Below the pieces are notes generated by a model that saw only the letters and a program-made list of their open reading frames with translations, did not search any database and was not told the DNA's origin. The position numbers and the translations under genes were made by a program. From contig DAOUJP010000007.1 in assembly GCA_034422515.1 (NCBI GenBank), positions 21,175-85,174 of the forward strand: a stretch of DNA of 64,000 bases. Reading direction: 5' to 3'. Source of the stretch: Chloroflexota bacterium (GTDB lineage Bacteria; Chloroflexota; UBA11872; UBA12225; JAJDUF01). Shown piece by piece: positions 57,084 to 64,000 of this stretch; positions within the stretch are counted from its first letter, which is position 1; each line of letters begins with the position of its first letter.

Positions 57084-59501
<2,418 letters not shown>

Positions 59502-59620
59502 GGTTGCCCTCCTCTCATCCTCTGTCGAATGCCTCGCACTCCATTCACATTGGGGAAGTTGCGAGCCGTCAGGCCCATAGTCCCGGCAGCTCACTCCCCG
59601 GCAGTAGGGCTACGGTGGTC

Positions 59621-60118
59621 CTAGCCCGCCGACTGACTGGCGGCGTGCTGGACGGCCTTGACGATGTTGTGGTAGCCGGTGCAACGGCACAGGTTGCCTT
59701 CGAGACCCTCGCGGATTTCTTCCTCGCTGGGGTCGGGATGGCGTTGCAAGATTTCGTAGGCAGAGATGATCATGCCGGGAGTGCAGAAGCCACATTGCAG
59801 GCCGTGCTGCTCCCAGAACCCCTCCTGCAAGGGGTGGAGACCACCATCCTGGGGAGCCGTTGCCGCCAGCCCCTCGATGGTCGTGATCTCAGCCCCGTCG
59901 GCTTGCACGGCAAAGACAGTACAGGACTTCACCGTCTTGCCGTCCATCAGCACGACGCAAGCGCCACACTGGCTGGTGTCGCAGCCGATGTGGGTGCCGG
60001 TCAAGCCCAACGCATCCCGCAAGTAGTGAACGAGGAGCGTGCGCGGCTCAACCTCAGCCGTGCGGGTGGTGCCGTTAATCGCCGCCGATACTTCCTGTGT
60101 ACTCACCACGATACTCAT
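59621..60118 (-). CDS. [2Fe-2S] small subunit, CoxS-like
   Basis: [24 protein letters not shown]. Confidence 0.93.
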
Positions 60119-60376
60119 CCCCTTTCTGCGGTGGGTATGCCCCCACCCGGGACCTACCGATGTCATGGCCGGCGGTCGCCGGTGCGGCGGCAAACCGGAG
60201 AGTCACTGACCCCCGGCTGGGTGTTAGCGACAGTCTAAGCATGGTCCGGCGCTGAGTCAAATGGTATTGTAGGGTAAGGAGTGTGCCTCACCCCCGTCCC
60301 GGCGGGCTTTCTAGCCACAGAGAGGAGGCCGGCCCCCCTATGGCCCCCCCGCGCAGTGGGGGAACGGTCAGTTCCC

Positions 60377-61195: not shown

Positions 61196-62089
61196 CTACT
61201 TCAAGGTTTCGAGGTAGACGGCGATGGCTTGCAGGCGATTCTCGGGCAACGGATACGGCGGCATCTGCGAGCCTTTCTTGATCCCGGGCGGATTCTGTAT
61301 CCAGCGCACGACGTTCTCGCGGTTGAAGGGCAGCACACCGGCAATCTGGCGGCTGGCAATGCCGTCGAGCGCCGGGGCTGCGACGCCGATAGCATCGGTC
61401 CCCTCGATGGCGTGGCAGGCGCCGCAGACGGAGACGGTGAGTACCTTGCCTAGCTCTTCCTCGCTCTCGGTGGGCTGTGCCGTCGGCGTCGCCAGCTGCT
61501 CTGCTTCGGCGAAGTGCGCCACCATCTCCCACTCACCACTCATGATGAGCGCCACCAACTCGTTAATCATCTCGTAGTTGAGCGGCCCGCCGTTCTCCAG
61601 TCCCCATCCCACCATCGGCGTATCTTCTCGTCCGTTCTGGATCGTCTTGTAGAGGAACGCGCGCGTCTCCTCGTAGGCTTCGGCGTTGTCGGGCGTATTT
61701 TCGATCTGGAATGCCCCGGTGTTGAGCGGCCGCCCGATATAGACCCCCGGCCCACCTTCCAGGAAGCCCTGGCCATCCAGTCCGTGACAGCTCATGCAGA
61801 GGCTGACGTAGGAGTGCGCCCCCCGCTCGACCAAGAAATCGTGCTGCACGGCGGCCGCGGCCTCCTGCCGGCCCGGTTCGTTGGCCGCGTAGGCGATCAT
61901 CAGCAGAAAAGTCTCTATGATGAGCACTACCCCGAACAGGAGCTTGCGGCCGTTGCCCTGGGTCAGGGGCAGGTCCACTTCCTGCTCACTCCCCGTTTCC
62001 GGCACCTCCACCCGCCGGCGGCGCCAAGAATCGAGAATCACGGCCACGGGAAAGATCAGTGCCACTGCGACGATGACGAATGTGAGCAC
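61196..62089 (-). CDS. Membrane-anchored di-haem c-type cytochrome
   Basis: Two N-terminal TM helices; CMSCH and CGACH; distal Met candidates PMVGW and SQMP. Confidence 0.88.
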   Translation of the reverse strand: MLTFVIVAVALIFPVAVILDSWRRRRVEVPETGSEQEVDLPLTQGNGRKLLFGVVLIIETFLLMIAYAANEPGRQEAAAAVQHDFLVERGAHSYVSLCMSCHGLDGQGFLEGGPGVYIGRPLNTGAFQIENTPDNAEAYEETRAFLYKTIQNGREDTPMVGWGLENGGPLNYEMINELVALIMSGEWEMVAHFAEAEQLATPTAQPTESEEELGKVLTVSVCGACHAIEGTDAIGVAAPALDGIASRQIAGVLPFNRENVVRWIQNPPGIKKGSQMPPYPLPENRLQAIAVYLETLK

Positions 62090-62158: not shown

Positions 62159-62689
62159 CTAGACTGGCGTGACGTGCTCGGCCTCGTGCTTCGAGCGTAG
62201 CTGGATGTCTCCCGTATCCACGAGCACCTCGCCATTGTCAATCCTGGTCGTCATGTAGTCAAGTGGCCGCGGCGCCGGCCCGTAGATAAGCTGTCCGTTG
62301 GGCAGGTACGTCGAGCCGTGACACGGGCACCGGAACAGCCCCGTGATGTCTTTCCCCTCGTAGTCCCACGTGAAGGTCTCGCGCCAGGGCACGGTGCAGC
62401 CCAGGTGGGGGCACGTCTGGAACAAGGCGATGAACCCTTGGGCTAACCGCACCAGGTAGAATTTCCCGTCAATCTTGTAAGTCACGGAGCCGACCGCATA
62501 GTCGTCAGCGTTGCCCATCGAGATGACGCTGCCGAAAGCGCCGCGCTTGCGCGGCCAGAAGAACACGACAAAAGCGACGAGGGCTTGCAGAGTGAGCAGG
62601 CTCATGGTGCCGAGGCCGAATATGGCCAGTATGCCGCGCCGGGGCACGGTCGCTCCCCCGCCGCCCCGGGCTGCCGCTGCTGTTGCCAT
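62159..62689 (-). CDS. Rieske [2Fe-2S] protein of a bc/b6f-type complex
   Basis: Tat-like RRGIL plus TM helix; CPHLGC and CPCHGS boxes; GPAPRPL. Confidence 0.93.
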   Translation of the reverse strand: MATAAAARGGGGATVPRRGILAIFGLGTMSLLTLQALVAFVVFFWPRKRGAFGSVISMGNADDYAVGSVTYKIDGKFYLVRLAQGFIALFQTCPHLGCTVPWRETFTWDYEGKDITGLFRCPCHGSTYLPNGQLIYGPAPRPLDYMTTRIDNGEVLVDTGDIQLRSKHEAEHVTPV

Positions 62690-62742
62690 CAACTTTTCTC
62701 CTGTACCTCGTACCGAGGTGAACTGTGAACTGTTGCCCGGCG

Positions 62743-63813
62743 TTAGGCCTGGCGTGGCGGTAACGCCCACGGCCAGAAAAGCTCCATGCCCGGCCCGCGC
62801 ATCGCGGTGCCGATGAAGGTCAGCACCAACCACGCCACCACGAAGCCGGTGAAATAGGCGATCATCACCTCACGGATCGTCGGCCTGAACGGACGGATGA
62901 TAAACCATATCGCGTAGGAGAAGACGAACATAACCACCGTGGGGATAATGACCTCGGGCACCATGCCGATGCGTAGCTCCGGGTTAATGGCGCCCATCAG
63001 CTCGCGCACGCCGATATAGTAGTCGAATACCACCAAGCCGATGGTGACGATGGCGGTATAGATCGCGATCACAATCGCAATCTTCTTGCCGACGGGTGAG
63101 GTAAACCAGTGTCCGGTCTCCTCCGAGTTCACGTCAATGTAGGGAATCGCCGCGAGCATAATCAGGATGATCGTCGGCACGATCACGCCCGCCAGCCCGG
63201 GGTGCATGTGCAGAAGCAACTCCTGCAAATTCATGAAGTACCAGGGCGCCTTGGAGGGGTTCGGCGTGCGGTTGGGGTTGGAGTGCTCTTCCAGCGGAGC
63301 ATTGATGAACCAGGACATCACGATCAGGCCGACGGTCAATAGCGCGGTCGCCAAGAACTCCGGCATCAGCAGGTGCGGCCAGACCGTCACGTTGACCTGC
63401 GCGCGCCGCGCCGCCGAACGGAGTGCAGCGGCCGATGAAGCGGCGCCAGTGGTCCGCCGCGCCGGCCGCCGCCGTGCTGCTGCCGGTCGTGCGGCGGCCG
63501 TGGCCGGCGCCGCTGCTGGGGCGGCCGCCGCGGCTGTCGTTGTGGCTGCCGCCGGTGCGGCCTCCGTTGCCGCCGCGGCCGCCGCCGGCCGCCGGCGCCG
63601 CCGCCGCAGTGGTGCTTCCCGACCGCAATCGGGGGTGAGACAGGTGTTGTTGTTCGCCTCCCACGCGCTGGCGTGGTGGGGGTTCTTGCACTGCGTGCAG
63701 AACACCACCTCCTCGCCGACCGCAATCGCCGTATCTTCCCCGGGCGGAGTCGTCCCAATCCAGGGTGACTTGTCGTTTGCGGTGCTCACAGTGAGCGGGC
63801 GCGGTCCACTCAT
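62743..63813 (-). CDS. Cytochrome b subunit IV (PetD-like) with N-terminal RING-like Zn domain and Ala/Arg linker
   Basis: VWPHLL, APLEEHSNPNRTPNPSKAPWYF (PEWY equivalent), LLAAIPYID-type helix; N-terminal CTQC..PHH..W....C....C. Confidence 0.85.
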   Translation of the reverse strand: MSGPRPLTVSTANDKSPWIGTTPPGEDTAIAVGEEVVFCTQCKNPHHASAWEANNNTCLTPDCGREAPLRRRRRRPAAAAAATEAAPAAATTTAAAAAPAAAPATAAARPAAARRRPARRTTGAASSAAALRSAARRAQVNVTVWPHLLMPEFLATALLTVGLIVMSWFINAPLEEHSNPNRTPNPSKAPWYFMNLQELLLHMHPGLAGVIVPTIILIMLAAIPYIDVNSEETGHWFTSPVGKKIAIVIAIYTAIVTIGLVVFDYYIGVRELMGAINPELRIGMVPEVIIPTVVMFVFSYAIWFIIRPFRPTIREVMIAYFTGFVVAWLVLTFIGTAMRGPGMELFWPWALPPRQA

Positions 63814-63864
63814 AACTCTTCTCCACAGCAGTTGATAGTCAACGTACCCCTCTCCCCCTGAGTC

Positions 63865-64000
63865 CTAGAGAGGCTGCGAAAGACCGCCGTCCTGGCGCAC
63901 GCGCCAGAAGTGTACCGCCAGGAACACGGCCAGCAAGAGCGGCAACGCGATGACGTGCAAGGTATACCAGCGGATCAGCGTATTGCCGCCGATTTGGGCA
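63865..64000 (-). CDS. Cytochrome b6-type (PetB-like) subunit, C-terminal end only
   Basis: Manual translation: ...IGGNTLIRWYTLHVIALPLLLAVFLAVHFWRVRQDGGLSQPL*, with two haem-ligand His 15 residues apart. Confidence 0.88.
   Translation of the reverse strand, partial: AQIGGNTLIRWYTLHVIALPLLLAVFLAVHFWRVRQDGGLSQPL

Follow-up and report, generated by a model that had tools for sequence, protein, structure and literature searches.

To our knowledge, RING domains are known almost entirely as ubiquitin-ligase domains of eukaryotes, and little is known of what they do in bacteria. In the RING cross-brace, ligands 1, 2, 5 and 6 form zinc site 1 and ligands 3, 4, 7 and 8 form site 2; the U-box has the RING fold without zinc ligands. 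The closest bacterial relatives belong to prokaryotic RING finger family 1 (Prok-RING_1, PF14446), a known family for which a 2011 study by Burroughs, Iyer and Aravind is reportedly the source, and whose members are typically membrane-associated and share the spacing CxxC..CxxCxxxH(H)xxCW..CxxxxC. The alpha-COP RING-like domain has a RING-type fold with its zinc ligands lost (PMC4678705), and bacterial RINGs without two ligand pairs are said to occur (PMC11354881). The domain described here resembles all of these ligand-losing RINGs in that the RING/treble-clef fold would outlast the loss of metal ligands, but differs in that exactly one cross-brace site has been lost and a two-zinc paralogue is encoded in the same cell. 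A literature search for RING fusions to PetD or NuoC in Chloroflexota found none, and the PF14446 papers retrieved were unrelated; the fusion architecture itself is visible in precomputed Pfam annotations. New here are the one-zinc derivative, fixed in its genus and under purifying selection, an independent further loss of site 1, a third carrier protein, and a resemblance among the heads of one genome. Our overall reading, to which a probability of about 55% was assigned, is that a one-zinc RING-derived head is borne on a tether and serves as a docking module.

The gene lies at positions 62743 to 63813 (minus strand) of the window, the whole stretch of 64,000 nucleotides analysed, and encodes a protein of 356 amino acids (P0001) composed of a RING-derived head, a tether and a PetD-like subunit IV. 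Translation gave the layout of the original prediction, with a Cys/His stretch from W18 to G64, six arginines at residues 70–75, a linker and then the PetD-like domain. Upstream lies the 3' end of a petB-like cytochrome b6 gene (63865 to 64000, minus strand; PF00033, E 1.4e-46), with its stop codon at 63865–63867, which continues beyond the window and encodes 245 amino acids in L002. Downstream follow the Rieske iron-sulfur subunit (62159 to 62833, minus strand; PF00355) and a membrane-anchored dihaem cytochrome c (61196 to 62089, minus strand; PF00034/PF13442), and the order petB-like, petD-like, Rieske, dihaem cytochrome c is repeated in L003. Given the Rieske and dihaem cytochrome c genes downstream and the petB-like gene upstream, P0001 is therefore the subunit IV of a Rieske/cytochrome b complex in which cytochrome b is split. 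The longest Rieske reading frame shares 90 nt with the end of petD; the real Rieske start is likely to be the ATG at 62689, which is preceded by GGAGAA and gives a protein of 176 amino acids with a Tat-like RRGIL signal, and the orthologue in L003 has 176 amino acids.

The start of the petD-like gene was also checked, since a true start downstream of the domain would have removed the head from the protein. A Shine–Dalgarno sequence, GGAG, is read at 63821 to 63824 (minus strand), 7 nt 5' of the ATG at 63813. This ribosome-binding site, the presence of the head in all orthologues (82–95% identical to P0001 within the genus) and the dN/dS of 0.07 over the head place the real start 5' of the domain, and an internal start 3' of the head was ruled out on the same grounds. 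For annotators, this means that the long N-terminal extensions of these PetD genes, and of the NuoC genes described below, are real and not mis-starts.

The C-terminal part of the protein (residues 141–356; 62743 to 63393, minus strand) matches the cytochrome b C-terminal/PetD family PF00032 at 22.0 bits, above the cut-off of 20.7, and contains five hydrophobic segments and a PEWY-type loop, PSKAPWYF, that is invariant in 31 homologues. The five-segment membrane part is common to homologues from Thermomicrobiales and other Chloroflexota, with matches that reach the C-terminus. Likeness to PetD/subunit IV of b6f complexes and of Bacillus-type menaquinol:cytochrome c reductases thus lies in the PF00032 match, the PEWY-type loop, the separate petB-like gene and the presence of Rieske and cytochrome c genes in the operon, whereas the five hydrophobic segments, in place of three, and the 140 residues of N-terminal head and tether set the protein apart. 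The membrane domain had been called a normal PetD-like one, which holds for its family but not for its segment number, plastid PetD having three. The best NCBIfam match of P0001 was ExtQ, at 50.7 bits far under the cut-off of 150.

Between head and membrane domain runs the tether (residues 67–140; 63394 to 63615, minus strand), which comprises the Arg6 tract followed by low-complexity Ala/Pro/Thr/Arg sequence. Its 74 residues include 36 alanines, 15 arginines, 7 prolines and 7 threonines, with 15 Lys/Arg against a single Asp/Glu, and its length differs among orthologues. In solved b6f complexes the N-terminus of subunit IV is on the n-side. Because of this orientation and the 15 : 1 excess of Lys/Arg in the tether, the head is probably cytoplasmic and would then lie within perhaps 10–20 nm of the complex on its n-side. 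PetD homologues from outside the order (L004, L005 and L010 from other Chloroflexota, and P0044 and P0051) likewise have an Ala/Pro tether at the N-terminus, about 110 residues long, in which a short conserved motif (TPDMEGLSPSERAA.YKQRAAAAGIG) replaces the RING head. The tether may predate the RING head.

The head itself (residues 1–66; 63616 to 63813, minus strand) is derived from Prok-RING_1 and carries an N-terminal β-strand extension. A Pfam search with residues 1–70 returned PF14446 as the best match (E 1.2e-5), although at 25.6 bits it narrowly missed the gathering cut-off of 29.1 bits; the whole protein scored 21.5 bits. Orthologous heads of the sister family scored 38.8–44.6 bits, a profile built from 28 heads matched the PetD head with E 4e-26, and BLASTP against the RING of the NuoC protein of the same genome gave E 1e-25 with 48% identity over 73 ungapped residues. 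The resemblance to RING family 1 that had been noticed by eye is thus true homology. The ligand positions of the PetD head are fixed by the NuoC alignment: C1, C2 and C6 correspond to P23, E26 and A50, and five of the eight ligands are kept (C39, C42, H47, C58 and C63). Site 2 is therefore complete (codons within 63625 to 63699, minus strand, with C39 at 63697–63699, C42 at 63688–63690, C58 at 63640–63642 and C63 at 63625–63627), and of site 1 only H47 remains. The loss of ligands 1, 2 and 6 and retention of 3, 4, 7 and 8 agree with what had been proposed, to which the retention of ligand 5 can be added. The N-terminal 66 residues are almost certainly a diverged member of Prok-RING_1, with a RING fold in which the second zinc site is left and the first is gone, and a single zinc ion per PetD head is predicted from the ligand count. 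Compared with typical members, with which it shares the spacing and homologous sequence, the PetD head is without site 1, falls below the gathering cut-off and is placed at the N-terminus, and it has an extra conserved β-strand and an SxW motif and is connected through a long Ala/Pro tether with a respiratory subunit. In the 43-head alignment, sister-family heads are without the eighth cysteine, for which an Asp or Glu three residues past C7 (C-A-x-D) substitutes; the CxxxxC spacing, with the eighth cysteine, is kept in the genus itself and in distant Prok-RING_1 proteins.

The fold was predicted with AlphaFold2 from an alignment of 43 heads, mostly two-zinc relatives. The model of the one-zinc head had a mean pLDDT of 91.7 and a pTM of 0.78 and consisted of an N-terminal strand (7–11), a hairpin (35–38 and 45–47) and a helix (48–53). 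In an exhaustive VIA-align search against 48,161 PDB representatives, the seven best matches were all RING-H2 E3 domains, namely RNF12 (6w9a), RNF13 (5zbu), RNF38 (4v3k), ZNRF1 (5ywr), RNF165 (5d0i), praja-1 and Ark2C, with Z-scores of 4.9–5.6, rmsd of 2.4–3.1 Å and 56–63 of 72 residues aligned. The first five of these scored Z 5.3–5.6. The same proteins ranked first in Foldseek (TM 0.5–0.59) but with E above 0.2, nothing being returned at E ≤ 0.001. The intact NuoC head (model pLDDT 84.4) gave the same seven leading domains at Z 5.3–6.3. A search of the PDB with the head sequence profile gave no significant match, the best being the eS27 zinc ribbon (E 0.037) and the EL5 RING-H2 domain (E 0.095). 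A RING fold is thus predicted to persist despite the loss of site 1, with the qualification that a Z-score of about 5.5 is modest for 72 residues and that the alignment was dominated by two-zinc heads. A structural match to a RING had been named as a check on the assignment, and the seven leading VIA matches supply it at the level of the model.

These matches also bear on whether the head could act as a RING ligase, bringing in an E2-like or another transfer enzyme by which respiratory subunits would be modified or marked. The top-ranking domains come from catalytic RING-H2 E3 proteins, and for several there are structures that include an E2; some prokaryotic RINGs are said, in the work by Burroughs, Iyer and Aravind mentioned above, to adjoin E1, E2 or JAB genes. 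The identity to the RING-H2 domains is only 7–13%, however, and the PetD head has one zinc site fewer. In eukaryotic RINGs, site 1 shapes one of the two loops of the E2 groove, so its loss removes one of these loops from the PetD head. No match to PF14461, PF14457 or PF00179 was obtained in a search of the same genome for E2 proteins, which was run without a positive control on an assembly that is 91% complete, and the neighbouring genes are purely respiratory. An E3-like ligase was accordingly considered very unlikely.

Selection was estimated by pooled pairwise Nei–Gojobori comparison across eight genomes of the genus. The dN/dS of the PetD head was 0.07 (dS 0.24), against 0.11 for the tether (dS 0.45) and 0.09 for the membrane domain (dS 0.27), and the NuoC head gave 0.09 (dS 0.39). 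The fusion had been suggested for a search in related genomes, and a one-zinc head, near-identical in sequence, was found on PetD in all eight genomes of the genus. Across 43 heads W18, V37, C39, C42, W51 and C58 are invariant, and S16, G20, P24, G33, P45, H47 and N56 are near-invariant; conservation of the site-2 cysteines, also put forward as a check, was thus seen for C39, C42 and C58. Because the one-zinc form is kept in eight of eight genomes at a dN/dS of 0.07, the PetD head is not decaying but is under strong purifying selection. Loss of three of the eight ligands, a score under the Pfam cut-off and a very long branch to the PetD heads of the genus might suggest the functionless, decaying remnant of an old fusion; but the head evolves at a dN/dS as low as that of the membrane domain, its sequence is nearly the same in eight genomes, its fold is predicted with confidence, and W18, W51, C39, C42 and C58 do not vary among 43 heads. 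A relic can in effect be discarded because of this purifying selection.

A scan of the whole assembly with PF14446 found a single protein above the cut-off, the NuoC paralogue of 287 amino acids (contig C14 of genome G000, L001 826 to 1686, minus strand; PF00329, E 3.4e-31), whose gene stands in a row with nuoA, nuoB and nuoD (order nuoA-nuoB-nuoC-nuoD). The protein begins with a RING that has all eight ligands, after which comes an Arg/Ala/Pro linker, and the RING scored above the PF14446 cut-off in both a six-frame search of the genome (34.5 bits) and a protein search (31.7 bits). The two fusions share the same head, the style of tether and an order-wide distribution, but the NuoC head has all eight ligands and is borne by a soluble subunit of the peripheral arm, whereas PetD is an integral membrane protein. 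With a profile of the heads run against all six-frame reading frames, exactly two carriers, PetD and NuoC, were found in this genome; a third match (C14:93039-93203, E 0.055) was marginal and was taken as chance.

Among the other genomes searched, the head profile was found in every genome of the same order (22 of 22, comprising 8 of 8 from the same family and 14 of 14 from the sister family) and in none of 38 genomes from four other families of the class. In a sample of 300 genomes of the phylum, related domains occurred elsewhere only in two families, as C-terminal eight-ligand RINGs of small proteins with two transmembrane segments. The occurrence in 22 of 22 genomes of the order, in 0 of 38 from the other families and in a two-segment form elsewhere shows that the cassette at the N-terminus of respiratory subunits is an innovation of this order, retained since. 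Two respiratory complexes have a core subunit with a tethered RING-derived head, which has been kept order-wide under strong selection. Searches of protein collections returned many Chloroflexota metagenome proteins with PF14446 and PetD, one of which bears the NCBI name 'RING finger protein', and about 25 clusters in which PF14446 is combined with NuoC; the layout of the small two-segment proteins, which is the ordinary membrane-anchored one for Prok-RING_1, was met again in a library of 1.8 billion proteins, with DUF4190 partners. Two further proteins, P0256 (315 amino acids) and P0260 (238 amino acids), carry the same head subfamily and soluble C-terminal domains without a Pfam match.

Genomes of the genus have two carriers each (NuoC and PetD), and those of the sister family often have a third as well, a protein of about 185–220 amino acids in which the head is followed by an Ala/Pro linker and a single conserved transmembrane helix (L113 1801 to 2367, minus strand, and L114, L115, L118, L125, L099, L101, L104, L121 and L127, all from the sister family); it was not found in the genus itself. 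In two genera an ABC-2 permease and an FAD oxidoreductase are encoded next to it, in others an unannotated protein of 627 amino acids, and no link to respiratory genes was found among the neighbours checked.

The distribution of the thiols is relevant to a redox or zinc-thiolate switch, in which oxidants produced by complex I and the Rieske/cytochrome b complex would release zinc and unfold the head and thereby alter how active the complex is or how fast it is turned over. Both carriers of this genome are textbook sources of reactive oxygen species, the head is tethered near the n-side of the complexes, and the site-2 cysteines are kept, with C39, C42 and C58 invariant in 43 modules. Several lineages have nevertheless dropped half of the thiols with selection not visibly relaxed, the third carrier is without a tie to a redox enzyme complex, and no thioredoxin-like or regulator gene adjoins the operon; the present data fit a structural zinc site as well as a reactive one. 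Such a switch therefore seemed unlikely, though less so than a ligase.

Site 1 has also been lost outside the genus. In a clade of the third, transmembrane-type carrier in the sister family (L104, L121 and L127), C1, C2, H5 and C6 are lost jointly and C3, C4 and C7 are kept; P0014 and P0017 are in the site-1-less state too. Together with the loss in the PetD heads of the genus, the joint loss in this clade makes at least two independent block losses of site 1, and there is none of site 2. This strongly indicates that site 1 is dispensable and site 2 indispensable. The loss had been proposed to be selective rather than random; that site 1 was lost again, independently, in another lineage favours this, but in statistical terms the data speak mainly for block loss and the indispensability of site 2. 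Two block losses at the same site are weak evidence for a site preference (chance 0.25–0.5), because the other ligands of a site are unconstrained once the first has been lost. One-zinc and two-zinc heads coexist in single genomes, as a two-zinc NuoC head with a one-zinc PetD head in G000 and as a two-zinc PetD head with a one-zinc transmembrane-type head in G016, which offers a natural structure–function experiment on which half of the RING serves a non-ligase role.

A maximum-likelihood tree of 45 heads united the PetD and NuoC heads of the genus in a single clade (98/98), with a very long branch to the PetD heads, and placed the PetD heads of the sister family in a separate clade (99/95). 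Constraining all PetD heads to one clade cost 12.1 log-likelihood units (AU p = 0.028, for a group chosen after the tree had been seen). In G022, the PetD head (L126 3081 to 3299, plus strand) and the transmembrane-type head (L104 1504 to 1728, minus strand) share a near-identical site-1-less core but have different N-terminal strands, the PetD head retaining a PetD-type strand, and the shared core looks, from sequence, like a gene-conversion tract between paralogous cassettes. Taken together, the data are suggestive of a resemblance among heads within a genome, which could be explained either by gene conversion between cassettes or by co-evolution with a shared partner.

In another reading the heads bind one another, so that complex I, the dimeric Rieske/cytochrome b complex and the small membrane protein would be held together in a supercomplex or a patch of membrane. 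Each cell has the cassette on two or three of its membrane complexes, heads of the same genome are more alike than orthologous heads, dimerisation is common among eukaryotic RINGs according to textbook knowledge, and one metagenome PetD homologue (P0031, 535 amino acids) has two tandem RING heads with an Ala/Pro linker between them. Gene conversion accounts equally well for the similarity within genomes, however, and the mixture of one-zinc and two-zinc heads in the cells of G000 and G016 goes against a strict symmetric interface. Bridging of this kind was judged unlikely, on a par with the redox switch.

The reading preferred over these alternatives is that the head is a non-catalytic protein–protein docking module, being neither a cofactor site nor a ubiquitin-type ligase, a view of its role that we hold at roughly even odds. 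NuoC is a cytoplasmic subunit of the peripheral arm of complex I. The presence of a folded head of 66 residues on an Ala/Pro tether of 60–150 residues in two or three complexes is taken as a reach-out docking architecture. In P0001 a positively charged, Ala-rich and flexible tether of about 74 residues connects the head to the first transmembrane helix. As the one-zinc form indicates, the interaction surface would depend on the half of the head around site 2, on the central helix with W51 and on the N-terminal extension with S16 and W18, all of them conserved. The heads might act as a shared handle by which respiratory membrane complexes are recognised by a common partner in the cytoplasm or at the membrane surface, candidates being factors for assembly, quality control or organisation, or by which they recognise one another. 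This handle would follow from architecture and distribution, and a label of 'respiratory handle' may be too narrow, given the non-respiratory neighbours of the third carrier.

Rather doubtful, though less so than either the redox switch or bridging, is a stronger form in which the heads of NuoC, PetD and the small membrane protein constitute an order-wide RING tag and bind either each other or one organiser. If this were true, respiratory complexes would be physically coupled or co-regulated, by a supercomplex or quality-control principle undescribed in bacteria, and the one-zinc head of the genus would be a specialised partner for the two-zinc head of NuoC. As domains of 66–72 residues the heads are clonable, and they offer an entry to the organisation, assembly and turnover of the respiratory chain in uncultured Chloroflexota.

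Elsewhere in the window (57084 to 60193, minus strand), two reading frames of 836 and 190 amino acids with Cys motifs were noted that by eye resemble the large and the [2Fe-2S] small subunit, respectively, of a molybdenum hydroxylase of the CO/xanthine dehydrogenase type.
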